Shown one piece after another: positions 240 to 13,940 of a DNA stretch of 13,940 nt. The stretch covers positions 1 to 13,940 of the forward strand of contig JBIKLL010000072.1 in the NCBI GenBank assembly GCA_044359815.1, read 5' to 3'. Position numbers and translations under genes: made by a program. Numbering within the stretch: position 1 is the stretch's first letter; each line of letters begins with the position of its first letter. A model generated the notes under the pieces. The model had not been told where the DNA came from, did no database searches, and saw nothing but the letters and a program-made list of their open reading frames with translations. The DNA comes from Pseudobdellovibrionaceae bacterium. GTDB taxonomy: Bacteria > Bdellovibrionota > Bdellovibrionia > Bdellovibrionales > Bdellovibrionaceae.

Positions 240-1586
240 CTATTTTTCGTGTAGGTAGTAAGAAATCTCTTGGTAAGCAACTTGGCCAGCAAACTGATTT
301 AGTCCCTTGGGACGCACAAATGTTTTTACAAATGATTCTCTAAAAGGTCGCAAATCATCTTGTCCCGGAAATGTTTTTATTTTCTCGGCACATTCCAATA
401 CAGAATGGGTGACATAAACTGCCTTTGAATCTACCAAATCACTAAAATGCAAAGCCAGTTTCTGAGTCTTTTCAAATTGCGGCAATACAATAGCCACAGT
501 GGGTTTATTAAAAACCACGGCATCTATCATGGCCGAGGTGTTGATACCAACTATTGCTTGAGCGCCTTTTATCATGGCGCCAAATTCGGATTGGCCTTTG
601 ACAGAACTGGGGAAAGAATTTTTATCTGTAAATACAAAAACTTCCTCATGACCAACTAGGCTCGAATACACTTGCTGATTCTCTGGATGAGGTCTCAAGC
701 ATACTGTGAATTGGGGTAAAAGCTTTTGCAGTTCCAAAATAACCGCCGTTTCATCCTTGGCAATGTTGCTGGAAGACCCCAGATACAATACATAGGGCTT
801 TGTCATATTCATCTTTGCTTCAATTGCTCTGATCCCAGGTGACCACCATTTATCAAACAAGCAGGCACCTACGATTTTCACTTCTTGGTCGCTGAAATCA
901 TGTTTTGATTTTGCAAACTGTTGCTGTTTTTCATTCCATACCAACAGCAAATCCGGTTTGATTGCAAATGCGCCCTTCGTAGTTAAATTATCCCAGCTAA
1001 TAACAGGCACTATTGAAAACACTCTCAAAGCCTTCGCAGCTTTTACAAACTCAATTTCGTAGGAATGTTTCATGTTACATGGCGATGCAATAATTGCTTG
1101 GGGCCTGAGCTCTTTAGTAACCCTTAAGACTTCTGGATCGGTGGGAACTACGGTCTCAATTAACCCTAATATTAAGTCTGCTGTTTCAGATTTTAATAGA
1201 TTCTGAGTCCACTGATAAGAAAATATTTTTCTAAATGGCCAAGATAAATAGGAATGCCACCTGGCCAGATAAAACTTGGACTGTGTTTGATCCAGTAAAT
1301 AATTTCTGTAGGACCTCAGTTCACGGATTTCCCAAATAAATCTTCTGAGCAGCTTGAATCTGCCCAATCGTAATGTGTGCACAACGACCGATTGATCATC
1401 GATGTACTCTGCTAAAAAATCAGTTAAAACAATATCCTTAGGATCCGGTGCAAACAAATGAACTTCATACCCAGACTTAACAAATTCTTTGATTAGAAAT
1501 TCAAAGTAACTGGAAAACAAAACCTTTCTCAATGCCAAGATTATTTTAGGTTTTCGATTTTCTGACAATTTAAAATTTTCTGTCAT
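240..1586 (-). CDS. Putative GT-B-fold glycosyltransferase (candidate CMP-ulosonate transferase; CDP-glycerol:glycerophosphotransferase-like)
   Basis: About 448 aa. The ATG at 1586 overlaps the neuA-like TGA (TGATG); the ORF track starts one codon earlier at TTG 1589. Motifs SWDNLTTKG, LLVWNE, LRPHP and GINTSAMIDAVVFNKP fit a two-Rossmann GT-B pattern. Last gene of the NeuB/NeuA module. Confidence 0.6.
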   Translation of the reverse strand: MTENFKLSENRKPKIILALRKVLFSSYFEFLIKEFVKSGYEVHLFAPDPKDIVLTDFLAEYIDDQSVVVHTLRLGRFKLLRRFIWEIRELRSYRNYLLDQTQSKFYLARWHSYLSWPFRKIFSYQWTQNLLKSETADLILGLIETVVPTDPEVLRVTKELRPQAIIASPCNMKHSYEIEFVKAAKALRVFSIVPVISWDNLTTKGAFAIKPDLLLVWNEKQQQFAKSKHDFSDQEVKIVGACLFDKWWSPGIRAIEAKMNMTKPYVLYLGSSSNIAKDETAVILELQKLLPQFTVCLRPHPENQQVYSSLVGHEEVFVFTDKNSFPSSVKGQSEFGAMIKGAQAIVGINTSAMIDAVVFNKPTVAIVLPQFEKTQKLALHFSDLVDSKAVYVTHSVLECAEKIKTFPGQDDLRPFRESFVKTFVRPKGLNQFAGQVAYQEISYYLHEK

Positions 1587-2335
1587 CAACTGTTCAACAG
1601 GGCTTCAGCCAATTTAAAATCTAATGGAGTATTAATATCCACCGACTCTTCCTCGCTCATTTCAAATGATAAAACCTTTTCACCCACTGTATTGTTAAAA
1701 TCATAAAGGGTTTCGGTTTTTACTATATAGATACTGGCATTCTGAATCTGCACTGCGGGCAACAAATGATAAGCCGCTGTATTTGTGGCACCATTGTCTT
1801 TTTTAACGAACGGGACTAAAAAATCACCGTCTTTGGTCCACATTTTAAAAGGATGCTCGCTGACTTTTTTGGTTGATCGTAAACTGTGAGCTTCTTTGAA
1901 CTGAAACAATCTTTCAATCGCATCGTCAATAGTCTCAGCCCTCCTAAAGGGAGTGGTGGGGTACAAATTAACAATCAACTCTGGCAGATACTTGTTCTTT
2001 TTATAAAGCTCATTCAATGCATGCACATGAAATTCAAATTCAGTTGAATTTTCATTGGCAATTTCAAAGGGCCGTAAAAAAGGAATTTCTGCCCCTGCTT
2101 TTTTCGCAACCTCTGCGATTTCGGCCGAATCAGTTGATACGACAATTCTATTGATCAGTTTGCTTTTTTGAGCCGCTTCAATGGTGTAGTTTATCAATGG
2201 CTTTCCATTGAGTGGTAAAATATTTTTATTTTTGACTCGCTTAGATCCACCCCGTGCAGGTATTAAACCCAGAATTTCTCCAGGTCTAATAGCCTTCAGT
2301 AAATCATCTTTGCTATCAAAAATAAGATCCAACAT
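1586..2335 (-). CDS. neuA: Acylneuraminate cytidylyltransferase family protein (CMP-ulosonic acid synthetase)
   Basis: LIPARGGSKRVKNKNI CTP-binding loop, VSTDS, PFLRP, PTTPFR, NASIY, SVDINTPLDF; 249 aa with no fused HAD domain; start overlaps the upstream stop (TAATG). Confidence 0.9.
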   Translation of the reverse strand: MLDLIFDSKDDLLKAIRPGEILGLIPARGGSKRVKNKNILPLNGKPLINYTIEAAQKSKLINRIVVSTDSAEIAEVAKKAGAEIPFLRPFEIANENSTEFEFHVHALNELYKKNKYLPELIVNLYPTTPFRRAETIDDAIERLFQFKEAHSLRSTKKVSEHPFKMWTKDGDFLVPFVKKDNGATNTAAYHLLPAVQIQNASIYIVKTETLYDFNNTVGEKVLSFEMSEEESVDINTPLDFKLAEALLNS

Positions 2336-4251
2336 TATTTAGACATCTCGCCAATTTTTGCAGCCAATGTTTCTCCGTCGATTCCATGAAATCTCAAAGC
2401 TTCCCATGGTGTTCCGCAAGCTGGAAACCCTTCCACTCCAAATTTTCTAAGTGTCAGATTCTTTAACAATCCATTGGCATTTAAAAATCCTGTCAACAGA
2501 TCGCCCAATCCTCCAGTCGGAGCATGGTCATCCAGTACAAACAAATTGCGACAATCTTTCAACGTGGCTTTCATCCATGGCAGATCAAAACGATTTAACC
2601 AAGGCAGATTATAAACCGCCAATTTAAAACCCTTTTGAGCCAGCTTTTCAGAAGCCAATAAAGCTTCATGCAACATCACTGGGCCGTAAGAAATCAAAAT
2701 ATTTTCAGATCCTTCGGTCAGTTGATTGCCACAGCCAAATTGTAGTTTCCAATCTGGTTTAAACTCGATCAATCTTGGACTGGGGCCAATGTTCATTCTG
2801 ATATTAACAGATTCTTTGGCCTCGTTAATGGACCATCTAGTTAATGATTCAGTTTCCTTGGCGTTAGCAGGTTGAACAATCGTGACATTAGGTAAAGCTG
2901 CAAACAAAGAAATATCTCGGATTGCCTGGTGTGATTTTCCAGGACCTGCAGGAATTAATCCCGCATAATGACAAGCGTATATAATTTTTCGCTTCTCAGT
3001 TTGAGTATTGTAAATCTGTTCGTTCGCTCTGGCTGCCATAAAATTTGCAAATGAATTACAAATTGGCGTAATACCTTTACCAGAAATTCCACAAGCCATA
3101 GAAACCATGTCTTGCTCAGCGATACCCATCTCGATAAATCTGTCTGGATATTTGTCTTCAAACTCTCGCAGTTTACAATCCAACGACAAATCAGCATCTA
3201 AAACTGCAAAATCTTTTCGCTCTTCTGCCATCTTCACCAATGTTTTTCCATAGGCTTCAGCTAAAACCTCGCTGGAAACTTTGGTTCCAGGTCTGGCTTC
3301 AGGAGCTGGTTCTACCCTTTTAAATGCTGTTAATTGGTGTTCAGTAAATTTCTTCTGAATATTCCCCAGCAGTTCTGAATAAGCTCTTTCATAAGACGCA
3401 TCGTCTGGAGCTCCTGCGTGCCATTTAAAAAATCCATTATTATCTTTCAGCGCCTGAGGATGTTCCATAAATGAAATGCCGCTGCCTTTGATCGTGTCAC
3501 AAATCAAAAACTTTGGTCTGTCCTTGATCGCATCAAGAGCTTTAAAGGTTTTTTCCAATTCATTATAATCATGCCCATCGCATCTCATTACTGCCCAGCC
3601 GAAAGCTTCAATTTTTTTCTGCAAATCACCTAAACTAACAATGCGGTCAATATTTCTGTCTGACTGTAATTTGTTGTGATCCATTACGACCAAGACATTT
3701 CCATTTTTATGGTGTGCCGTTGATTGCAAGGCTTCGAAATTTTGACCTTCTTGAAATTCTCCATCACCAACCATAACGATAACTCGACCGGTGTTGCCAT
3801 TATACTTTTTTGCCCAAGCGATTCCTCGGCCTTTAGAAATTCCCATCCCCAAAGAACCCGTATTGGCTTCAACTCCTGGGATTCTGACATCGGGATGTCC
3901 ATCCAAACCATCTAATCTGCGCAAGGCTAAAAATTTATTTTCAGGAACGATATTCATTGAATACAAAACGGCATACAAACCTGGAGCATCATGGCCCTTT
4001 GACGAAAAATAAATATCTCGATCAGGGCTATCAATACCCACATCTTTAACGTTCATAAATCGTTCATACAGATAAACCACAATATCCATCGCACTCAAGC
4101 TTGATCCCAAATGACCACTGCCGGCTCTTTTGACTTCAAACAGAGTATTCAGTCTGCTCATCTTGGACAGCAATTGCAGCTTTTCCTGCCATGGCAAATT
4201 GGTGCTGCGAACATTTTCAAATTCACTTTTTGGGATAAACTTCATTTCCAT
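2335..4251 (-). CDS. Transketolase-family ThDP-dependent enzyme (single chain, N- and C-terminal sections joined)
   Basis: GSGHLGSSLS, SKGH, LDGHP, TGSLGMG, GDGEFQEG...N ThDP/Mg motif, TIKG, WH, DADL, EMGIAEQ, SHQ; strong SD (TAAGGAG) upstream of ATG 4251. Confidence 0.9.
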   Translation of the reverse strand: MEMKFIPKSEFENVRSTNLPWQEKLQLLSKMSRLNTLFEVKRAGSGHLGSSLSAMDIVVYLYERFMNVKDVGIDSPDRDIYFSSKGHDAPGLYAVLYSMNIVPENKFLALRRLDGLDGHPDVRIPGVEANTGSLGMGISKGRGIAWAKKYNGNTGRVIVMVGDGEFQEGQNFEALQSTAHHKNGNVLVVMDHNKLQSDRNIDRIVSLGDLQKKIEAFGWAVMRCDGHDYNELEKTFKALDAIKDRPKFLICDTIKGSGISFMEHPQALKDNNGFFKWHAGAPDDASYERAYSELLGNIQKKFTEHQLTAFKRVEPAPEARPGTKVSSEVLAEAYGKTLVKMAEERKDFAVLDADLSLDCKLREFEDKYPDRFIEMGIAEQDMVSMACGISGKGITPICNSFANFMAARANEQIYNTQTEKRKIIYACHYAGLIPAGPGKSHQAIRDISLFAALPNVTIVQPANAKETESLTRWSINEAKESVNIRMNIGPSPRLIEFKPDWKLQFGCGNQLTEGSENILISYGPVMLHEALLASEKLAQKGFKLAVYNLPWLNRFDLPWMKATLKDCRNLFVLDDHAPTGGLGDLLTGFLNANGLLKNLTLRKFGVEGFPACGTPWEALRFHGIDGETLAAKIGEMSK

Positions 4252-4265
4252 ATTGTTCTCCTTAA

Positions 4266-5717
4266 TTACAAATGAGCTAAAGTGTTGTGATAAGTAACCT
4301 TCAATTGTGTATAAACGTCAATGGCTTCGGGGCCTGGTTCACGCCCTCCAGCTCCTGAATCTTTGACCCCACCAAATGGCATGTGGGGCTCACTACCATG
4401 AGTGCCGGCATTAATCGAACAAACCCCAGCTTGAATTTTGCGGCTGAATTCCAATGCCCTATGATAATTTGATGTGTGAATGGCCGAAGTCAGTCCAAAA
4501 TCGCAATTATTTGCCAACTCCAAGGCTTCATTTAAATTTCGAACCTTGTACAAACAGGTTATGGGTCCAAATAATTCACATTTAGAAATTCTGGAATCCG
4601 CCGAGGCGTTTTCTAAAATTGTAGGCGGCACAAAAAAACCTTTGGACCAAGTCCCAGCATCTAGTCGCCTGCCTCCAACTAAAAGAGTCGCTCCGGCCTT
4701 TTGACTTTCATGAACTTCATGCAACATGCGATTCATGCCTTTTTCATTGATAACAGGTCCAAAATCATCAGCATCATTAGTGCCGATCTTTAATGAATGA
4801 GCTTTATCTAAAAACATCTTTTTAAATTTTTCGTACACATTTTCAAAAACAATTATTCTGCTGGAAGCCGCACATCTTTGTCCTGCATTACTAAACGAAG
4901 ACAATGTAGCCCACTTAACCGCATTTTCTAAATCAGCATCATCACAAATCACCATTGGGTTTTTTCCACCCAATTCTAAAAAGGTTTTCGCTAATCTGGC
5001 TCCCGCTGTCTGAGCGATTTGTCTTCCGACCTCTGTTGATCCTGTGAAACTGACTAATTGAATATTTTTGTTAGCAACTAAAGCTGCACCGACTTCTTTA
5101 CCTTCACCATGTAACACAGTCAGAATCCCTTTCGGAAAATGGGATTCAGAAAATATTTCTGCAAAAACCTGTGCTGTCAGTGGAGTGTCTTCTGAGGCTT
5201 TCAGTAAAGCTGCATTGCCAGCAACCAGACTGGGAAATACCTTCCATGCAATGTTAGCAATAGGTGTGTTGAAAGCTACAATCAATGCCGTTAATCCCAC
5301 AGGTTCTTTTGCAATGACAGCAGATCTGTTATCCACAGAACTTCCAACACTGCGACCAAACATTCGAGCGCCTTCGCCTGCCATGTAATATCCCTGGGCG
5401 ACGGCCGCCATGGTTTCACCCAAAGCATCTTTAACCGATTTTCCAGTTTCCAGCGCAACCACTTCGGCAATTTTTAATTTGTGATTTTCTAGGGATTTTA
5501 CAAAATCAAACATGATTTCCCCACGTTTTACCGTAGGAGTTTGTGCCCAAATTTTCTGTGCTTTTTGTGCTGAAGCTATGCTTTGCTCAACATCTTTAGC
5601 TGTTGATTTTGCAACTTGAGCAATGATCTCAGAATTTGCAGGATTTAATTTTGTAAAATAGGATTTACTCTCTGATTCGGCAAATTCACCGCCGATATAA
5701 TTTAGGATTTTTTTCAT
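4266..5717 (-). CDS. NAD(P)-dependent aldehyde dehydrogenase
   Basis: AFNTP (oxyanion Asn), KASE, FTGSTEVG, LELGGKN (catalytic Glu), GQRCAA (catalytic Cys), ELFGP, PFGGVKDSG; 483 aa. Confidence 0.95.
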   Translation of the reverse strand: MKKILNYIGGEFAESESKSYFTKLNPANSEIIAQVAKSTAKDVEQSIASAQKAQKIWAQTPTVKRGEIMFDFVKSLENHKLKIAEVVALETGKSVKDALGETMAAVAQGYYMAGEGARMFGRSVGSSVDNRSAVIAKEPVGLTALIVAFNTPIANIAWKVFPSLVAGNAALLKASEDTPLTAQVFAEIFSESHFPKGILTVLHGEGKEVGAALVANKNIQLVSFTGSTEVGRQIAQTAGARLAKTFLELGGKNPMVICDDADLENAVKWATLSSFSNAGQRCAASSRIIVFENVYEKFKKMFLDKAHSLKIGTNDADDFGPVINEKGMNRMLHEVHESQKAGATLLVGGRRLDAGTWSKGFFVPPTILENASADSRISKCELFGPITCLYKVRNLNEALELANNCDFGLTSAIHTSNYHRALEFSRKIQAGVCSINAGTHGSEPHMPFGGVKDSGAGGREPGPEAIDVYTQLKVTYHNTLAHL

Positions 5718-5743: not shown

Positions 5744-6565
5744 TTACCAAGCCGTCCAGCCGCCATCAATCACCAAATTTGAACCCGTCATATAACTGGA
5801 AGCATCCGACATTAGGAACACCACAGCACCGTTAAGCTCATCTGGCTTTGCCATGCGGCCCATCGGCATGCGCTTTAAATATTCATCTAAAAACTTCTGA
5901 TCTTGATTATTAAAAATCCCAGCAGGGGTTATCGTATTTACCCGTACATTCTGTTTTGCCCAATAGGTCGCCAAATACCGCGTCAGATTAAAGACCGCAG
6001 ATTTTGATATCGAGTAAGCCACTGGTTTAAACCAAGGCTTTCCACCCTCACGCTTAAATTCGTAAATATCCTGATTGGGTGAAACCAATCCATAAATCGA
6101 AGCTATATTAATTATGCTGCCACCGTCGTTCTGAGCCATTGCTTCGCCAAAAACCTGGCAGGCAAAAGTAGTTCCCAAAACGTTTACATCCATAATTTTT
6201 CTTAAAGAAGCTTCTGGATAGCTTTCAAAGGGACCATTTTCCTCTAAGCTGGCATTCGGAGGCGAATCCAAAGCGGCATTATTAACCAGTCCCCAAGGAA
6301 CTCCCATGGAAGATTTGATTTCTTGAAATGTTTTTTTGATTTCTTCAGGCTTAGTGATGTCTGTAGTAAAGGCTTTTAATTGTTTTTTCTCTGATAAAAG
6401 CTCTAAAAACTTTTGATCGCCTTTTCTGGGTTCTTTCACAACATCAACGCAGGCAACTCTGGCACCGGCTTGCACCAAGGACAGCGAAAACTGCTGCCCC
6501 AATTGTCCCATGCCACCAGTAACTACTACGGTTCGATCTTTTAAATTAAAAAGATCTGATCCCAT
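5744..6565 (-). CDS. Classical short-chain dehydrogenase/reductase (PtmA-like, as found in nonulosonate clusters)
   Basis: TGGMGQLG Rossmann motif, acidic residue after beta-2 (CVDV, suggesting NAD), NNAA, ASIYG, YSISK (YxxxK), TGSNLVIDGG. Confidence 0.93.
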   Translation of the reverse strand: MGSDLFNLKDRTVVVTGGMGQLGQQFSLSLVQAGARVACVDVVKEPRKGDQKFLELLSEKKQLKAFTTDITKPEEIKKTFQEIKSSMGVPWGLVNNAALDSPPNASLEENGPFESYPEASLRKIMDVNVLGTTFACQVFGEAMAQNDGGSIINIASIYGLVSPNQDIYEFKREGGKPWFKPVAYSISKSAVFNLTRYLATYWAKQNVRVNTITPAGIFNNQDQKFLDEYLKRMPMGRMAKPDELNGAVVFLMSDASSYMTGSNLVIDGGWTAW

Positions 6566-6568
6566 AAG

Positions 6569-7708
6569 TTAGTCGTGCAGAGGGCTAAGAATTTCAAAGC
6601 TCAGATCACCTTCCTCAGGAAGATCTTTTAGCAATTTCTGTCCCAAAATTTTATCATAATAAATTGGAGACATTCCATCAGCAGGAGATTTCAAACACAA
6701 ATCAGAATCTTGAAGGACATGACCAGCCTTTAGATTTTTGGCAGCCACCAGCTTTTTACCCATTTTTAACAATGGAGACTTTTCTCCAGGATAAGTGTCT
6801 TTCACGCCATTACCCAAAGCCACTCTGACTCGTTCAAGGTCTCTGACCATTTTCTTTAACCCGACTGGCTCTAATGAAAATGCGTGGTCCGTACCTCGCC
6901 AAGCTCTGTTGATTGTAAAATGTTTTTCAACAACTCTTGCTCCTAATACATAGGCGCCCACTGCCATGGCGATACCGTTGTCATGAGCCGACAAACCAAT
7001 CACTACTTCAGGAAATTTTTCTCTAAAAGTTTTGATAACATTTAAATTTAATTCTTCGTAACTGGCGGGATAGCTGGCAGTACATTGCAAAATAGCTAAC
7101 TGTTGATTGATTGGATAGATGGTTTCAAAAGCTCTTACCACGTCTTCCAAGGTTCCGCCCCCAGTTGAAATGATCATTGGCTTTCCTTTTTTAGCCACGT
7201 GTCTCAGCAAAGGAATGGATTTCAAATCACCCGATGCCATCTTGTAAGCTGGCACTCCCAACTTATCCAAAAAATCTGCGCTTTCTACGTCAAAAGCTGT
7301 GGAAAAAAAGTCCATATCCAATTTCTCAGCGTAGGTTTTAAGTTCTACATATTGTTCCCAACCAAACTCCAACGCATCCCTATGAGATCCATAGGTTGGA
7401 CCATAAGCATTTTCACTGGTGTATGGCTGATCATACATTGCCTTTGTGTACATAGTTTTATTATTGCGTTTTTGCAGTTTAACAGCTTGTGCACCAGCTT
7501 CTTTGGCTGCATCAAACAACTGCTTACAAACTTGCACATCACCTTTGTGATTGTGTCCGATTTCAGCAATCACATAACAAGGGCTTTGATCGTTGATGAC
7601 ATGCTTTCCGATTTTCATTTCTCTTTTTTTAGATGTCGCTGAATTCATTTCTGATTTTCCTGTTTTAAATTGGTTTTTATTCATATTAATAGATTCAGTA
7701 GATTCCAT
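6569..7708 (-). CDS. neuB: NeuB/SpsE-family PEP-dependent ulosonic acid synthase with C-terminal SAF/antifreeze-like domain
   Basis: IAEIGHNHKG, KLQKR, YKMASGD, ISTGG, QCTASYP, GLSAHD, EKHFT, GTDHAFSLEP, SAF-like tail (KKLVAAKNLKAG...KSPADG). SD-like AGGGGG 6 nt upstream of ATG 7708; an alternative start at 7648 is possible. Confidence 0.93.
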   Translation of the reverse strand: MESTESINMNKNQFKTGKSEMNSATSKKREMKIGKHVINDQSPCYVIAEIGHNHKGDVQVCKQLFDAAKEAGAQAVKLQKRNNKTMYTKAMYDQPYTSENAYGPTYGSHRDALEFGWEQYVELKTYAEKLDMDFFSTAFDVESADFLDKLGVPAYKMASGDLKSIPLLRHVAKKGKPMIISTGGGTLEDVVRAFETIYPINQQLAILQCTASYPASYEELNLNVIKTFREKFPEVVIGLSAHDNGIAMAVGAYVLGARVVEKHFTINRAWRGTDHAFSLEPVGLKKMVRDLERVRVALGNGVKDTYPGEKSPLLKMGKKLVAAKNLKAGHVLQDSDLCLKSPADGMSPIYYDKILGQKLLKDLPEEGDLSFEILSPLHD

Positions 7709-7787: not shown

Positions 7788-8915
7788 CTAACGGTTTGCA
7801 TTACTTTGTCCAAACCCACCTTTACCGCTCCAGTCTTGCAGAAGCTGTTGCACAAAAACTTCCGAACCATTGCTGCCTGCCAAAGTTTTCTGACAAAATT
7901 CAGCGGCCAAATCTTGGAAAGCCTTTGAGCTTTTTTTCCAGTTGTTAAGAGCGCTTACCCAATCCTGAGGACTGGTTGCTAAACACAAAGGTTTGTATAA
8001 ACTCAAATCCAAATCTGTATTGATCACCACCACTGGCTTTCCGATCACAGAAGCATCCAAAGCAATAGTTGACGGGCAAGTGTAAACTAAATCTAAGCCC
8101 TTTATAAATTCGCTGGTGAAAATGCCTTTCCACTGAGTCAATTCATTATCCACGATTTCAAATCGCGTATGAAAATGCTTTTGCAAATCCTGAAAGCGAT
8201 TTTTAAAAAGCTTGCTATAGTGTGGTTTTAAATACACTTTTATCGAAACATCGGACCTAAGCAGCAATTCAATTCCTTTAAGGAACTGAGCTCGATAGTT
8301 TTCGTCATACCTGTGCCAATGCAAATTCTCAAAAACTCCGATTTTGAATCCTTGCCAATCAGAATCAAATTTTTGTGGGCTCTGGAAGCTTCCTATTTTG
8401 GGGTATCCAGCCGATATCATTTTCTGGCGCTCCGCAAGATCTAGCCACGAACTCAGACTGCTTGGCTTTCCCCATATCAACACCTTGTCGGAAGCGAACT
8501 TTACATTCTCGCTCAAGCTGTCTTTATAGTTGATTCCCACATTTTCAAAACCGTGTTGCCAAGTGTAGGATCTGATCCCAGAAACTCTAGCTTTTTTTGT
8601 TATTCGATGCCCTAAATTATGAGCGGCCAGATTGGTTTCAACCGCCGTTACCAAAAAATCAATTCCCTTTAATGCTGGCCATGGAATCCCCATCCGCCCC
8701 CTGATTCTGGATAGCCAAAAGGGATTCCAATCTATCAAATAAAAAATCCCCAATTCTTTCAGCCGATTTATAGAATCCGGAATCTTTAAATGAATTCCTT
8801 CCGCCAAAAAAACTTTGATCGGAATATTCTGTTTTTTACATTCAATCATTGAGCCTATTAAAATCTCAAAATCAGTGGGCATATACAGATAAAACCCAAC
8901 CACTGGCAGCTTCAT
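7788..8915 (-). CDS. Hypothetical protein, probable GT-B-fold glycosyltransferase
   Basis: 375 aa; TWQHG, VLIWG, AGYPK, LKPHY and STIALDASVIGKPVV motifs resemble GT-B/capsule-synthesis proteins; translationally coupled to the upstream methyltransferase (TAATG at 8917-8913). Confidence 0.55.
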   Translation of the reverse strand: MKLPVVGFYLYMPTDFEILIGSMIECKKQNIPIKVFLAEGIHLKIPDSINRLKELGIFYLIDWNPFWLSRIRGRMGIPWPALKGIDFLVTAVETNLAAHNLGHRITKKARVSGIRSYTWQHGFENVGINYKDSLSENVKFASDKVLIWGKPSSLSSWLDLAERQKMISAGYPKIGSFQSPQKFDSDWQGFKIGVFENLHWHRYDENYRAQFLKGIELLLRSDVSIKVYLKPHYSKLFKNRFQDLQKHFHTRFEIVDNELTQWKGIFTSEFIKGLDLVYTCPSTIALDASVIGKPVVVINTDLDLSLYKPLCLATSPQDWVSALNNWKKSSKAFQDLAAEFCQKTLAGSNGSEVFVQQLLQDWSGKGGFGQSNANR

Positions 8916-9598
8916 TAACTTTTAGATCCCACAACAAACACGGCCACACCCAACAGATCCCATAATCCAGCAGCCATAATTCGCCTTTTGATGGGCAACG
9001 AATAAACCAAATTATAAATAATTGCTGGCACTGACAGCAAAAGGATGCGTTTTACATCCCTGCGCGTGCCCTTTCTGTGAATGATCACGCCATTTTGTGA
9101 AAGTGTCTCGGCAATTTCGTTATATGGATAAGGCTGAGTGTGCGTGGGGTCGTCTTTGAAATTCAAAAACCCATCTGCCGATGGGTATTTTAGCGTTCTC
9201 TCCGAAGGTGTTTCAACATAGATAACACCTCCTTTTTGCAGCTTTTTGGCCAACTCTGCTAAAATCTTGTGACCATTCCACAGATGCTCAATCACGTGGC
9301 TAAAAATGATCACATCAAAAAAATTATCAGGGACTTTTGACAGCCCCTCTTTGTCTAAATCTATTTTATAAAACTGGTCTATGCCCTTATAATCATTTTG
9401 TTGGCCGTGCCAAAATTCACGATCGACACCATGATATTCTTTTACATTTAACCATTGTTTAGTAGTTTCAAATGAAGCATTGCCACACCCTACATCCAAA
9501 ACCATCAGTGGCTTGTTGGCCGCAAATTTTTTTACCCAATATAACTTGGGAGGTATTAAAAGTCGCTTTATCCATTTTGCCAAATTTCTTAAAACCAT
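8915..9598 (-). CDS. Class I SAM-dependent methyltransferase
   Basis: VLDVGCG motif I, GVD, FDVIIFSHVIEH, LQKGGVIYVETP, DPTH. Confidence 0.9.
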   Translation of the reverse strand: MVLRNLAKWIKRLLIPPKLYWVKKFAANKPLMVLDVGCGNASFETTKQWLNVKEYHGVDREFWHGQQNDYKGIDQFYKIDLDKEGLSKVPDNFFDVIIFSHVIEHLWNGHKILAELAKKLQKGGVIYVETPSERTLKYPSADGFLNFKDDPTHTQPYPYNEIAETLSQNGVIIHRKGTRRDVKRILLLSVPAIIYNLVYSLPIKRRIMAAGLWDLLGVAVFVVGSKS

Positions 9599-9601
9599 CT
9601 T

Positions 9602-10441
9602 TCACACTCCGAAATACAAAGAATAGCATTTTTCAGCCGAATCTTTTCTGAACTGAAAATGCTTATACGAGAAAATATTTGCCCAAGTTCCAATTGCCCC
9701 ATGTTGATAATGCTTCACTGTTATTGATGGCATGTAAACCACTTTTAGTTGCAGCTTCTTGCAATTTTCAGCCACCGTGAATTCTTCTCCAAATAAAAAA
9801 CAGGGGTGCTCAAATGTCCCGCCTCCCTCAAAATAGGAATCACTAAAAACCATCAAGCTTCCATGGGGCGCATAAATGTCGCTTTGAATCGCAGGATTAC
9901 CTGAAGCTCTTCCGAAAAAACCGAATAATCTGTATTTTATTTCAGCCAATAACTGATAAATCACAGCCGTGAAATAGTTCGAAAAAGCCTTTTTCCAAAT
10001 TTTGATTTTTTCAATTCTGGGAGAATCTTTCATAAAGGGATTCATATCACTGCCAGACACTGACGAAACTATCCGTGGCGCCAGGCAACCCCAGCCTCTG
10101 ATTTTTTGTTCGTTAAAAATCAAACTGTAAAAATCTTTGTTCAAAATTTCTAAATCGGTATTAGAAACAATGGTCATTTTTTTGATCTTCAATTGCGATC
10201 TGGCCCACTCAGCGCCACCAAAATACCCTCGATTTTCAGGGCAATTCAGAACAACCAATCTGCCAGAAGATTTTTTTACCAATTCAGTAAAATTATCCTC
10301 TTCGGTTTTTTTGGCGCTGTTATTTACCAAAACCCAACTGACTGAATCCGCATCAGGCAAATCAAACAGGCTCTGCAGAAAATCTGAAGTTTGTTTGTCA
10401 TTGTGATAGTTAACGCAAATATGCACGAGCTTTTGATTCAT
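9602..10441 (-). CDS. Glycosyltransferase family 2 (GT-A fold)
   Basis: ICVNYH, LVNNS, ENRGYFGG, SNTD (DxD-equivalent), HGSLMVF, FLFGEE, VKH; 279 aa. Confidence 0.85.
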   Translation of the reverse strand: MNQKLVHICVNYHNDKQTSDFLQSLFDLPDADSVSWVLVNNSAKKTEEDNFTELVKKSSGRLVVLNCPENRGYFGGAEWARSQLKIKKMTIVSNTDLEILNKDFYSLIFNEQKIRGWGCLAPRIVSSVSGSDMNPFMKDSPRIEKIKIWKKAFSNYFTAVIYQLLAEIKYRLFGFFGRASGNPAIQSDIYAPHGSLMVFSDSYFEGGGTFEHPCFLFGEEFTVAENCKKLQLKVVYMPSITVKHYQHGAIGTWANIFSYKHFQFRKDSAEKCYSLYFGV

Positions 10442-10477: not shown

Positions 10478-11752
10478 ATGTTTAAAAGTGCAATCTTACA
10501 AAATAGTGGTTGGAATATTCTGGGAAACTTAATGCCGTTTGTCGTCGGTATTTTTACAATCCCACGAATCATCCACGGCATCGGGATTGAACGCTTTGGG
10601 ATTTTATCAGTAATTTGGATTTTGCTAGGATATTTTGCATTGTTCGACTTTGGCCTGAGCCGATTTGTGACGATCAACAGTGCTTTGGCAATTTCTGAAA
10701 AAAACCGACAGAATATTTCAAAAATTTTTTGGAGCGCTTTCCTGGCTGTGGCTTTGGCTATGTTTATTGTTTCTTCGTTGATGATGGGTTTGTCTTACAC
10801 GGATTTTTTCTCTAAATTTCAAGTCACAGATCAGTTTAGAGCCGAAGCCCTCGAGTCCACTCGCTGGATGATATTGACAATTCCAGCTGTGATTTTGACC
10901 ACATTATTCAGAAGCCTGCTTGAATCAGATTCACTGTTTAAAGAAATCAATGCTCTGCAACTGGTTGCCGGAACTTACAATTACCTTTCACCTATGCTGG
11001 CCTTACATACTGAACAGCCTTTATTAACCACGGTGAAACTGTTGGTGTTGGGACGTTTTCTGATTTGCTTGGCTCACGGATTGTGGTGTTTGGTGTTTTT
11101 TCCTGAGATCAAAAAAATCGATCACTATTCAAAGGCAGAATACAAAAAAATGCTGACCTATGGTGGATGGATGACCATTTCAAACGTGATTAACCCTATC
11201 ATGGTGTATATTGACAGGTTGTTTTTGGGTTTGTTTTTAGAAGCTTCAAAAATTGCTTACTACACTGTGCCCACTGAAATACTTAATCGATCTTTAATAG
11301 TCCCTCAGAGCATTGCACGAGCGGCGTTTCCTCAGATGAGTGTTCAGAAAGCTGGCGAAGCCTACCAAAGCAGACCCCATCGCGAAGCCTACAAATTGAC
11401 AATAATCACGATGCTGCCTTTTTGCATTTTGGCATTTTTATTGGGTAAATTCGGATTGAATTTTTGGGTGGGCGAAGCGTTCACCCAGCAGAGTATTTTG
11501 AATTTTCAAATCCTTACAGTTGGGGTTATTTTTGCCAGCTTGGCTGGAATTCCCTATATGTTTATCCAATCGCGTGGCCGCTCAGATGTGGCAGCAAAAC
11601 TGCACATGCTTCAGTTTCCCATTTATCTTTGCGCTCTTTATTTTATGGTTTCCTATTTTGGCGCCACAGGGGCCGCAATTTGTTGGTCCGTGCGTTGGTT
11701 TTTGGATTTTGTCTTAATGGAATTTGCAGCCAAAAGGATTCAGCACTCATGA
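10478..11752 (+). CDS. wzx: Polysaccharide flippase (Wzx, MOP/PST family)
   Basis: 424 aa, highly hydrophobic with many predicted TM segments; NSGWNILG...P...GIERFG, FDFGLSR, IDRLFLG, IAYYTVP, GATGAAICW pattern typical of Wzx. Confidence 0.9.
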   Translation: MFKSAILQNSGWNILGNLMPFVVGIFTIPRIIHGIGIERFGILSVIWILLGYFALFDFGLSRFVTINSALAISEKNRQNISKIFWSAFLAVALAMFIVSSLMMGLSYTDFFSKFQVTDQFRAEALESTRWMILTIPAVILTTLFRSLLESDSLFKEINALQLVAGTYNYLSPMLALHTEQPLLTTVKLLVLGRFLICLAHGLWCLVFFPEIKKIDHYSKAEYKKMLTYGGWMTISNVINPIMVYIDRLFLGLFLEASKIAYYTVPTEILNRSLIVPQSIARAAFPQMSVQKAGEAYQSRPHREAYKLTIITMLPFCILAFLLGKFGLNFWVGEAFTQQSILNFQILTVGVIFASLAGIPYMFIQSRGRSDVAAKLHMLQFPIYLCALYFMVSYFGATGAAICWSVRWFLDFVLMEFAAKRIQHS

Positions 11753-12492
11753 CATCTGATGATCTGGTCAGCGTAGTGATTCCCATTTACAATTCACAGG
11801 AAACCATTAAGGAAACCCTACAATCATTAATTAACCAAACACACAAAAACTGGGAAGCCTTGGTCGTATTTGACCAGGGAACCACTGATGATTCTTTAAA
11901 AATTGCGAAGTCTTTTAATGATCCCAGGATTGTGATTTTAAACTCGATGGGAAAAAGCCTTGCTGCTGCCAGAAACCTGGCCCTTTTGCGAGCACAGGGA
12001 AATTGGATCACTTTTTTAGACAGCGATGATTTATGGAAACCTCAAAAACTGCAAATTCAGTTACAGATGATGAAAGACCATAATTGGGATTTTTCAGTCA
12101 CAGGTTTTAGTCGAATCAATCAGCAAAGTCGGATTATTTCAGCCGTCAGTATGCCCAAAGCAAAAACAGATTATTGGGATTTACTCAAAAACAATTCGAT
12201 TTCCTGTTTGACGGTGATGATCAGTCGTAAGGCTTTGGGGCAAAGTCAGTTCGCAGATTCTCATCAAGAGGATTTTATTATGTGGCTTGAGATTTTAAAA
12301 AAAGGTTTCACCTGCCAGGGAATTATGCAGGAACTTGCACTTTACCGAGTCCTTCCTAACAGTCGATCTTCTCGCGTCAACAGGCCATTGAATCGCTGGA
12401 AGATCATGAGACAGCGGGAAAAGCTTTCCTTCCCATTAGCTCTATATTATTGGTTAACTTATGTTTTTAGCGCCGTTGCAAAAAGGATGTGA
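11749..12492 (+). CDS. Glycosyltransferase family 2 (TuaG-like)
   Basis: The likely start is ATG 11749 overlapping the wzx stop (ATGA), giving 247 aa; LVSVVIPIYNS, AAARN, FLDSDDLW, QEDFIMWL, YR. The ORF track extension to 11464 lies inside wzx. Confidence 0.9.
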   Translation: MTSDDLVSVVIPIYNSQETIKETLQSLINQTHKNWEALVVFDQGTTDDSLKIAKSFNDPRIVILNSMGKSLAAARNLALLRAQGNWITFLDSDDLWKPQKLQIQLQMMKDHNWDFSVTGFSRINQQSRIISAVSMPKAKTDYWDLLKNNSISCLTVMISRKALGQSQFADSHQEDFIMWLEILKKGFTCQGIMQELALYRVLPNSRSSRVNRPLNRWKIMRQREKLSFPLALYYWLTYVFSAVAKRM

Positions 12493-12494
12493 TC

Positions 12495-13472
12495 ATGTTG
12501 ATTGCTAAAGCTCCATTAAGAATTTCGATTGGCGGAGGCGGCACAGACCTACCCTCTTATTATTCAAAATTTGGGTCCTGCTTTATCAGTGCTGCCATCA
12601 ATAAATATGTTTACATTGCTGTTCACAAAAATTTTCGGGATGAATTTTTACTGCGTTATTCTGAAACTGAAAAAACAAATACCATCGAACAGATCAAACA
12701 CCCACTGATCCGCGAATGCTTGAAAAAAGCCCAAATCAAAAATCATTTAGAAATTTCCAGTTTCGCAGACATCCCTGCTGGAACTGGATTAGGATCATCC
12801 GGAACTTTTACTGTGGCTTTACTAAAAGCCTTATACACCTATGGATCAATTCCGCACACGGCATTGAGTGTGGCTGAAGATGCCTGTCATATCGAAATTG
12901 AAAAACTGCAATCCCCCGTTGGAAAGCAGGATCAATATATTGCCGCTACTGGGGGCATCACACGATTTAAAATCGAACCTAACGGCCTTGTCCATGCAGA
13001 ACCTTTAGCGATGGCCCAATCCACCATTCATGAACTGCAGGATTCATTGTCACTGTATTTCACTGGTTTTTTCAGATCTTCATCAGAGGTTTTGTCAGAG
13101 CAAAAATCAAAATCGGAAAATCCTGAAATGATAGACAATCTGCACTTTGTAAAAGAACTGGGTGACCAAATTGGCAAAGCTCTTGAAAAGGGTCAGATCG
13201 AAGAATTTGGAAAGCTCATGCACACTCATTGGGAACACAAAAAAAAGCGATCAAACAAAACCTCAAATGACGAAATTGATGGATACTATGAGTTAGCGCG
13301 CAAAAACGGAGCCCTTGGCGGCAAAGTTATCGGTGCAGGAGGCGGCGGCTTTTTATTACTACTCAGTGAAAACCGCAAAAAACTGAGGGATTCATTAAGG
13401 GGAACTAATCTGCAAGAAGTTCCCTTTTCTTTTGATTATTTGGGAACTCAAGTCATGTTGAGGGAAAGCTAA
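12495..13472 (+). CDS. hddA: GHMP-family sugar kinase, D-glycero-alpha-D-manno-heptose-7-phosphate kinase-like
   Basis: APLRISIGGGGTD, PAGTGLGSSG, VGKQDQY, GGKVIGAGGGGF. ATG 12495 has AAGGA 7 nt upstream (alternative GTG 12489). Confidence 0.85.
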   Translation: MLIAKAPLRISIGGGGTDLPSYYSKFGSCFISAAINKYVYIAVHKNFRDEFLLRYSETEKTNTIEQIKHPLIRECLKKAQIKNHLEISSFADIPAGTGLGSSGTFTVALLKALYTYGSIPHTALSVAEDACHIEIEKLQSPVGKQDQYIAATGGITRFKIEPNGLVHAEPLAMAQSTIHELQDSLSLYFTGFFRSSSEVLSEQKSKSENPEMIDNLHFVKELGDQIGKALEKGQIEEFGKLMHTHWEHKKKRSNKTSNDEIDGYYELARKNGALGGKVIGAGGGGFLLLLSENRKKLRDSLRGTNLQEVPFSFDYLGTQVMLRES

Positions 13473-13940
13473 TGGCAAAATTTGTTGTAACCGGAGGGGC
13501 TGGTTTTATTGGCAGTCATTTTGTCGACACAGCCTTAGCAAAGGGCCACTCAGTTTTGTGTTTGGATAATTTCAGTACTGGCAAAAAGTTTTTTCTTGAA
13601 GCAGCATTACAGAATAAAAATTTTAAATTGGTTGAACTGGACATCACTCATTTCGACAATTTATCTAAGGCTGTTTCTGATTTTAAGCCAGACTGGGTGA
13701 TACACTTTAGTGCGAACGCTGATGTCAGAAGGGGTACAGATCACCCCCGTAAAGACCTGGATCAAAACACCATCGGCACATGGAATGTCATTGAATCCAG
13801 CAGATTATCAGGATGTAAAAATATTCTTTTCAGCTCAACAGGTTCTGTTTATGGGGAACCAGAAGTTTTTCCAACTCCTGAATCCTGTCCTTTTCCAGTA
13901 CAAACATCTTTGTATGGGGCCAGCAAATTGGCGGGTGAAG
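13472..13940 (+). CDS. NAD-dependent nucleotide-sugar epimerase/dehydratase (extended SDR), truncated by the window end
   Basis: Not in the ORF track. ATG 13472 overlaps the TAA of the kinase; translates MAKFVVTGGAGFIGSH...LDNFSTG...HFSANADVR...FSSTGSVYG...SLYGASKLAGE (GxxGxxG and YxxxK), open to the end of the window. Confidence 0.92.
   Translation, partial: MAKFVVTGGAGFIGSHFVDTALAKGHSVLCLDNFSTGKKFFLEAALQNKNFKLVELDITHFDNLSKAVSDFKPDWVIHFSANADVRRGTDHPRKDLDQNTIGTWNVIESSRLSGCKNILFSSTGSVYGEPEVFPTPESCPFPVQTSLYGASKLAGE

Follow-up and report, generated by a model that had tools for sequence, protein, structure and literature searches.

What does a transketolase-like enzyme that has lost the residues for the substrate phosphate do among genes that probably serve an activated acidic sugar? 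The question is raised by the window, the whole stretch of DNA analysed here, which is the complete 13,940-base contig JBIKLL010000072.1 from the 2.95-Mb genome (91% complete) of a Pseudobdellovibrionaceae bacterium (GCA_044359815.1). Its minus strand carries an intact open reading frame (ORF) at positions 2335..4251 that encodes a transketolase-like thiamine diphosphate (ThDP) enzyme of 638 residues, hereafter the query. The gene forms one run with genes for a NeuB-type synthase, a short-chain dehydrogenase/reductase (SDR), an aldehyde dehydrogenase (ALDH) and a cytidylyltransferase. We conclude that the query is very probably an active, non-phosphate member of a distinct group of transketolase-like proteins, here called the P-clade, and that it works in a cassette defined by NeuB and activation with cytidine monophosphate (CMP).

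Replacement of the phosphate-binding residues

The query has the three-domain build of PP, Pyr and C-terminal domains, with Pfam scores of 111 bits (Transketolase_N), 91 bits (Transket_pyr) and 48 bits (Transketolase_C). Both the GDG...N motif for ThDP and metal and the catalytic Glu are present; GDGE (residues 162–165), the ThDP/metal-binding motif that is invariant in the clade, is encoded at 3757..3768 on the minus strand.

Individual positions were compared with E. coli TktA and Dxs in an L-INS-i alignment of 16 sequences, with the E. coli numbering verified; the R358 column was read from this alignment and from the HMMER alignment to human transketolase 4kxu. All residues listed by an earlier note on this DNA were found in the query (H47, H87, H119, G162-D163-G164-E165, H278, A331, D358, E379, Y429, P437, K439, H441 and I488). 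In the L-INS-i alignment, the retained positions, given as TktA/query, are H26/H47, H66/H87, H100/H119, D155/D163, N185/N193, H261/H278, D381/D354, E411/E379 and H473/H441, and the changed positions are R358/A331, S385/D358, H461/Y429, D469/P437 and R520/I488. The same five replacements appear in the HMMER alignment to 4kxu (E 3.7e-65). In TktA, the histidines H26, H66, H100, H261 and H473 belong to the donor side, R358, S385, H461 and R520 hold the phosphate of the substrate, and D469 recognises the C2-hydroxyl of the acceptor. They fall in the Pyr-domain stretch of residues 331–488 (2788..3261, minus strand), in which A331, D358, Y429, P437, K439 and I488 are replacements and E379 and H441 are retained.

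E. coli Dxs has D427 in the D469 column, in agreement with the earlier statement that this Asp is conserved in DXS, and it has R478 and R420 in the R520 and H461 columns. The H100 column holds His in TktA, the query and all aligned clade members, and Phe (F107) in Dxs. In the D381 column the query has Asp as in TktA, and Dxs has Ala (A345). Both columns speak for a donor with a hydroxymethyl ketone and not for pyruvate. The yeast equivalent of H100, His103, binds the donor C1-OH, so the invariant His also suggests dihydroxyethyl-ThDP as the intermediate.

A signature of one clade

Judged by sequence, the replacements in the phosphate pocket are a clade signature and not drift. A word-indexed search returned 8000 matches, and in the best 120 of these (55–82% identity) the motif GPGKSHQ was present in 106, DGx[ST]H in one and GDGE in all 120. 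When 50%-identity representatives were searched exhaustively, 19,099 proteins matched at E ≤ 0.001, and 1,215 of them also passed E ≤ 1e-30. Among the best 150 representatives, the motif shifts from PGKSHQ to PGHSHQ and PG[SFTMI]SHQ at 30–45% identity, with Asp-retaining types lower.

Alignment A1 comprises 40 diverse clade members that are 30–55% identical to the query. H47, H87, H119, GDGE, N193, H278, E379 and H441 are invariant among them; this conservation of catalytic, ThDP and metal residues indicates that the clade enzymes are under selection as catalysts. The columns of the lost residues are also uniform in large part: V, I or L at R358 in 34 of 40 (Ala in the query), Asp at S385 in 39, Leu at H461 in 34 and Tyr in 3, Pro at D469 in 38, and Ser, Asn or Ile at R520 in 21, 9 and 2 members, respectively. 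No new invariant Arg or Lys occurs among the 40. As a shifted equivalent of a lost residue, only H428 could be considered, which stands one residue before the H461 column of the query; His occupies that column in 8 of 40 members, and on the evidence of the alignment the candidate was rejected. At −2 of the R358 column, R or K is found in 11 of 40 members and Val in the query.

K439 had been suggested in the earlier note as a possible carboxylate binder. Its column is variable (H in 22, K in 6, S in 4 and F in 4 of 40), so K439 cannot be a family-wide carboxylate device. The one new conserved polar residue of the pocket is D358, an acid, which argues against a simple anion site at that spot as far as the alignment can tell. 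The clade is large and multi-phylum, and its alignment describes a site in which the phosphate and acceptor-hydroxyl residues of transketolase and DXS have given way to a mostly hydrophobic pocket with one conserved Asp.

The P-clade was defined by an Asp in place of S385, a Pro in place of D469, the motif P-x-P-G-x-S-H-Q, and no Arg at the R358 and R520 columns. The query has all of these features, together with same-strand linkage to ALDH, SDR, cytidylyltransferase and NeuB. In a FastTree phylogeny of 79 sequences, taken from an 84-row alignment after removal of P0149, P0165, P0172, P0185 and P0227 (partial or aberrant), 41 signature tips fell inside one clade of 42 tips with support of 0.83. 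The one odd row in this clade has Ser-Pro-Asn at the three signature columns. A sister clade (P0192, P0194-P0196, P0221, P0239, P0240, P0242, P0253, P0255 and P0260) keeps Ser385, Asp469 and Arg520; H26 and H461 are replaced there by Trp and Tyr, respectively, and the motif reads TDG[KR][ST]HQ.

The query scored below every curated cut-off for transketolase (NF004559, the nearest model, 385 of 488 bits; NF004556, 286 of 575; TIGR00232, 155 of 682) and for DXS (TIGR00204, dxs, 185 of 466; NF003933, 154 of 395). With D469/D427 and R520/R478 also lost, the earlier proposal that the protein is neither a pentose-phosphate transketolase nor DXS is upheld. All 40 members of A1 match NF004559, the best with an E-value of 1.4e-133 as compared with 5.4e-115 (385 bits) for the query; as this is only a modest improvement, probably none of the 40 reaches the 488-bit cut-off. 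The proposal of a new ThDP subfamily gains support as well, since the signature marks one clade, its members appear to lie below the cut-offs and no description was found in the literature. The full-text search, with subscription journals outside its scope, returned no paper on this clade or on a transketolase in a NeuB/CMP cassette. A literature match for transketolase together with a nonulosonic acid gene cluster was set aside, as the matched passages concern ordinary pentose-phosphate transketolase.

Distribution in related genomes

A comparison with 40 related genomes, 24 from the same family and 16 from the same order, gave no homologue at E ≤ 1e-60 except for one match with 34% identity. 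Such sporadic occurrence indicates that the P-clade gene is not a housekeeping gene. The genome carrying the query has a second transketolase-like gene on contig C15 (L082:436-2520, minus strand), which encodes 695 aa and keeps the Ser and the Asp. This protein is also below every transketolase and DXS cut-off, with a best score of 230 bits against 488. No DXS above cut-off was found in this 91%-complete genome.

Gene context and cassette

The minus strand of the window carries nine tightly packed genes, the first for a 279-aa and the last for a 449-aa protein according to the ORF list and family assignments, and the GC content is even along the window (0.38–0.43). Upstream of the query gene, on the same strand, are genes for a NeuB-type ulosonic acid synthase that condenses phosphoenolpyruvate (PEP) (6569..7708, 379 aa; Pfam NeuB, 265 bits, and SAF), an SDR oxidoreductase of the sugar-acid type (5744..6565, 273 aa; Pfam adh_short_C2) and an ALDH (4266..5717, 483 aa; Pfam Aldedh, 490 bits). 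Only 14 bases separate the end of the ALDH gene from the start of the query gene, and the stop of the latter is overlapped by 1 nt by the start of a minus-strand gene for a CMP-type cytidylyltransferase (CTP_transf_3, 97 bits; 1586..2335, 249 aa).

The NeuB-type synthase scored 300 bits against the 400-bit cut-off of TIGR03569 and matched SpsE and SiaC in the PDB at ~1e-46, and the cytidylyltransferase scored 147 bits against the 206 bits required by the PseF model. Among NCBIfam models, the ALDH comes nearest to those of the alpha-ketoglutaric semialdehyde and 2,5-dioxovalerate dehydrogenases without reaching either cut-off (NF042993, 437 bits vs. 770); these enzymes act on the omega-aldehyde of a 2-oxo acid. 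For the SDR, mannonate, gluconate-5 and KduD-type models were all below cut-offs, and PDB entry 1vl8, a gluconate 5-dehydrogenase, matched at E 1.4e-32. Gluconate 5-dehydrogenase and KduD, to which the SDR is closest among named enzymes, both act on sugar acids by oxidation at the penultimate carbon.

Two further proteins of the operon have no Pfam family and resemble GT-B glycosyltransferases in Atlas features and structure: one of 449 aa (240..1589, minus strand) is like TagF/Glyphos_transf, and one of 375 aa (7788..8915, minus strand) is near the Glyphos_transf, Capsule_synth and polysialyltransferase clusters. The TagF, KpsC/S and polysialyltransferase families use CMP- or CDP-activated donors, and both proteins are candidate transferases for the CMP-sugar. 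By phmmer, homologues of the 449-aa protein stand beside the cassette in L001, L002, L004, L100, L128 and L147.

A metagenome scan with A1 yielded 80 loci, and the ORFs of these and of L001-L004 were searched with the window proteins (phmmer). A transketolase match was obtained in 84 loci, of which 31 had at least 5 kb of upstream sequence; 25 of the 31 carried the P-type motif by regular expression. The six excluded loci were four cut before the motif (two with a full cassette), one with a canonical enzyme, and L127, which has T for P. The motif of the L127 enzyme reads GTGHSHQ, with Thr at the Pro column, and in this cassette, which has no ALDH, the transketolase gene is followed by a 464-aa ORF without a Pfam family (L127:7025-8416).

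Partners were counted as same-strand genes within 7 kb in the 25 loci. ALDH and SDR were each present in 21, cytidylyltransferase and NeuB each in 20, and all four in 17. In three loci from metagenome-assembled genomes labelled Bdellovibrionaceae, Pseudomonadota and Anaerolineae (57–67% identical), the gene order is NeuB, in some cases a haloacid dehalogenase (HAD) gene, SDR, ALDH, transketolase and cytidylyltransferase. The tie to neuB clusters that the earlier note had envisaged for the motif GPGKSHQ thus holds for the wider P-x-P-G-x-S-H-Q clade and not for GPGKSHQ alone.

A KdsC-type HAD phosphatase accompanies the cassette in 10 of the 25 loci. It belongs to the KdsC/Kdn-9-phosphate phosphatase family and matched the 164-residue chains 3e81/3e8m, which we take to be BT1713, at E 2e-19. 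In L100, L109 and L148, all without a KdsC-type phosphatase, a HAD_2-type phosphatase of ~230–270 aa follows the transketolase gene directly (L100:10824-11618, L109:10911-11714 and L148:10875-11570).

Proposed reaction sequence

From the gene context only, we infer a non-phosphorylated sugar acid as the substrate of the query. The mechanism that we favour, which as written has a somewhat less than even chance of being correct, is the trimming of the tail of such an acid. The cassette would deliver a CMP-activated acidic sugar for a surface glycan. NeuB, together with the phosphatase where one is present, would form a 3-deoxy-nonulosonic acid of the Kdn/sialic type. The SDR would oxidise its penultimate hydroxyl (C8); acting as its named relatives do, it would leave a terminal ketol, HOCH2-CO-CHOH-, of the kind that a transketolase can cleave to an aldehyde. 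Attack of ThDP on the ketone in the query would break the C7-C8 bond, with the two-carbon unit held as dihydroxyethyl-ThDP and a C7 aldehyde left on the ring. The ALDH would convert this aldehyde to a second carboxylate, and the product would be a 3-deoxy-hept-2-ulosaric acid similar to Dha (C7H10O8 if derived from Kdn). The cytidylyltransferase would activate the product, and the neighbouring GT-B proteins would transfer the sugar. Activation with CMP could come before or after trimming, and the fate of the two-carbon unit is not part of the scheme.

Tail trimming would let each enzyme work in its usual direction and would keep the 2-oxo-acid end that the cytidylyltransferase needs. By our own stereochemical reasoning, 8-keto-Kdn or 8-keto-Neu5Ac, read from C9, would present the 3S,4R (D-threo) pattern of transketolase donors. 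By the same reasoning, D469 would face the pyranose ring oxygen and not a hydroxyl, which would explain why the Asp is dispensable.

Several observations weigh against this sequence. Pfam and NCBIfam searches found no phosphatase of the KdsC or HAD_2 kind in the window, and a search with the L002 phosphatase as the single query found none of the KdsC type in the genome, a weak negative given that the genome is 91% complete. Close homologues of the query (54–56% identical, with GPGKSHQ) stand alone among housekeeping genes, without the cassette, in L090 (8992-10968) and L137 (9001-10698), and L127, L145 and L146 have the transketolase and the SDR but no ALDH. The names of the nearest SDR and ALDH relatives are weak guides, since all scores lie below curated cut-offs. 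A two-carbon unit needs an acceptor, and none is evident with the phosphate site gone. The pocket appears from the alignment to gain an acid, D358, and hydrophobic residues, which is unexpected for holding a sugar carboxylate. By our own reasoning, the D-lyxo configuration that Dha has in plants and Acinetobacter is out of reach for a NeuB product derived from Kdn, which would be an isomer. Finally, we know of no glycan from a carrier organism.

In L137, a PdxJ gene lies ~900 bases upstream of the transketolase-like gene.

Transketolases run in both directions and the donor-side residues of the query are intact, which would also allow the opposite outcome: a two-carbon ketol from hydroxypyruvate or a ketose could be added to the ulosonic acid at an aldehyde or keto function, which would lengthen or branch the sugar. 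The carbonyl that accepts the unit could come from the SDR. However, ketol addition yields a ketol and not an aldehyde, so the ALDH found in 21 of 25 loci would have no obvious substrate, and secondary alcohols are the usual substrates of such SDRs. We therefore regard chain extension or branching as unlikely.

Predicted domain packing

An AlphaFold2 (AF2) monomer model of the query, built with A1, had a predicted local distance difference test (pLDDT) score of 94.2 and a predicted template modelling (pTM) score of 0.92. Foldseek placed human transketolase first by E-value, but with a template modelling (TM) score of 0.47 and a root-mean-square deviation (rmsd) of ~20 Å, whereas DXS chains had TM scores of 0.72–0.78. 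With VIA-align, the model superposed on DXS chains over its whole length (Z 38, rmsd 2.2–2.8 Å over 509–547 residues) and on every transketolase and pyruvate dehydrogenase (PDH) E1 at ~19.5 Å. The two halves of a split transketolase were matched at 2.0 and 2.2 Å.

As a control, the canonical short transketolase P0207, which keeps the Ser, Asp and Arg, was folded likewise with 20 relatives. Its model fitted human transketolase at 1.8 Å over 571 residues and DXS at 17–19 Å. This opposite packing indicates that the pipeline does not force a DXS-like arrangement, although a solved structure is available at 38% identity for the control and only at 28–30% for the query. A monomer prediction can also satisfy cross-chain contacts within one chain. 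The odds that the DXS-like packing suggested by the model is real are about even; if it is, the clade bears on the interconversion of the two architectures of the superfamily.

The resemblance to DXS opens the way to another reading, in which the query would use 2-oxo-acid chemistry: ThDP would decarboxylate pyruvate, hydroxypyruvate or the ulosonic acid at C2, and would then release an aldehyde for the dehydrogenase or join the fragment to a carbonyl. Besides the whole-length superposition and the reversed result of the control, it is in favour of this reading that ulosonic acids are themselves 2-oxo acids. Against it, the residues in the H100 and D381 columns match transketolase and not Dxs, and the best DXS match of the sequence (8e-32) is weaker than that with human transketolase (E 3.7e-65). 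Loss of C1 from an ulosonic acid by decarboxylation would destroy the anomeric centre that the cytidylyltransferase needs, and the packing itself is a prediction for a monomer. Such DXS-like chemistry is thus improbable in our estimate.

Position of the enzymes relative to NeuB

The flanks of the cassettes contain glycan-assembly genes, namely glycosyltransferases, methyltransferases and ABC or Wzx exporters. Methyltransferases were seen in L094, L097, L103, L105, L108, L117, L148 and L153. A NeuC-type epimerase was found once (L093) among 74 flanking ORFs, which came from 17 of 18 cassette loci (one locus gave none), and NeuC was rejected as a regular partner. The rarity of precursor-supply genes in the flanks fits the input of a common sugar phosphate and tailoring after synthesis.

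The same absence of most dedicated precursor genes could mean that the transketolase-like enzyme, SDR and ALDH themselves act before NeuB and make an unusual aldose for condensation with PEP; gene order does not fix reaction order. However, the phosphatases (KdsC-type in 10 of 25 loci and HAD_2-type in at least 3 more) would imply, where they occur, a sugar-phosphate substrate of NeuB, at odds with the lost phosphate site, and oxidation of an aldose precursor by the ALDH would give an acid unsuitable for NeuB. A role in precursor supply is accordingly quite unlikely.

That the query is an ordinary transketolase or DXS with its phosphate residues at shifted positions, or an inactive relic, is extremely improbable: H428 near the H461 column and the absence of a DXS above cut-off in the 91%-complete genome could be cited for it, but five positions are replaced together across the clade with no new invariant Arg or Lys, all transketolase and DXS scores are below cut-off, the gene is inside a glycan operon, its sporadic occurrence in the 40 related genomes is not that of a housekeeping gene, and the invariant catalytic residues speak against a relic.

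Tail trimming can be combined with the predicted packing into a bolder proposal, which is rather unlikely to hold in full. The query would then be a transketolase/DXS hybrid that uses ketol chemistry in a same-chain DXS-type build to remove the glycerol tail from a completed sialic-acid-like sugar that bears no phosphate. Together with the SDR and the ALDH, it would constitute the first enzymatic pathway known for heptulosaric (Dha-type) sugars.

Relation to known systems

The best sequence matches of the query are short human-type transketolases (4KXU and 3MOS; 3.7e-65) and the halves of the split Carboxydothermus transketolase (6YAK and 6YAJ; 1e-45 and 4e-39). It agrees with them in the residues for ThDP, metal and donor, among them those of the H100 and D381 columns, and each split half superposes at 2.0–2.2 Å. 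In contrast to these enzymes, the query has other residues in place of R358, S385, H461, D469 and R520, its model differs over the whole chain by ~19.6 Å, and its gene is in a glycan operon and not with pentose-phosphate genes. DXS (2O1X, 2O1S and 8A29), from the same superfamily, also combines ThDP with three domains, and its whole-chain packing is like that predicted for the query. The query differs from it in the absence of the residues that bind glyceraldehyde 3-phosphate in E. coli Dxs (D427, R478 and R420) and in having His and Asp in place of F107 and A345.

The engineered E. coli transketolase S385Y/D469T/R520Q (PDB 5HHT) is changed at the same three pocket positions as the clade, reportedly in order to remove the need for a phosphorylated substrate. 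In the clade, however, the changes are natural and clade-wide, lead to Asp, Pro and Ser/Asn/Ile, and are accompanied by changes at R358 and H461.

In Bacteroides thetaiotaomicron, the Kdn or 9-phosphate sialic acid route consists of Kdn-9-phosphate synthase, a KdsC-family phosphatase and CMP-Kdn synthetase. The cassette is similar in its NeuB-type synthase, its cytidylyltransferase and, in many loci, its KdsC-family phosphatase; its SDR, aldehyde dehydrogenase and transketolase have no counterpart in the known route, and the window has no phosphatase. KduD or gluconate 5-dehydrogenase and alpha-ketoglutaric semialdehyde dehydrogenase, which are catabolic, are the nearest named relatives of the SDR and the ALDH and offer the two reaction types that the mechanism needs. 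They differ in that all scores are below cut-offs and that the cassette enzymes, by analogy, would be biosynthetic and linked to CMP activation.

Dha is a C7 2-keto-3-deoxy dicarboxylic sugar, the kind predicted here, although by our reasoning the Kdn-derived product would be another stereoisomer. Dha is described in the lipopolysaccharide core of Acinetobacter haemolyticus in the part of PMC4019464 that bears on it, and in rhamnogalacturonan II (RG-II) and prasinophyte walls in the relevant passages of PMC3355719, where its activated form is given as unknown in 2012. The corresponding section of a 2025 review of RG-II still lists the Dha enzymes and the nucleotide form as unidentified (PMC12168206).

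Other genes in the window

The remaining genes of the minus-strand operon encode a class I S-adenosylmethionine (SAM) methyltransferase of 227 aa, assigned by family search (8915..9598), and, as the first gene, the 279-aa protein from the ORF list, which has no assigned family (9602..10441). Divergent polysaccharide genes occupy 10478..13939 on the plus strand; according to family searches they encode a Wzx-type flippase, a GT2 glycosyltransferase (TuaG-like), a GHMP kinase (HddA-like) and an NAD epimerase/dehydratase cut by the contig end. As listed, the GT2 ORF (11464..12492, plus strand) shares ~290 bases with the flippase ORF, and the Pfam domain is not reached until residue 103; the true start of this gene probably lies further downstream.

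Implications

The database labels "transketolase" and "DXS" are probably wrong for P-clade proteins and distort metabolic reconstructions of uncultured bacteria. Since S385, D469 and R520 are changed in nature where engineers mutate them, the clade is a ready-made panel of scaffolds for biocatalysis. By analogy with Dha, the cassette offers a concrete candidate chemistry for a route to heptulosaric acids of this type. If the proposed trimming is true, nonulosonic acid biology would gain a new type of reaction, the cleavage of a side-chain C-C bond by a ThDP enzyme, and a new class of CMP-activated dicarboxylic sugars on the surfaces of bacteria from many phyla.

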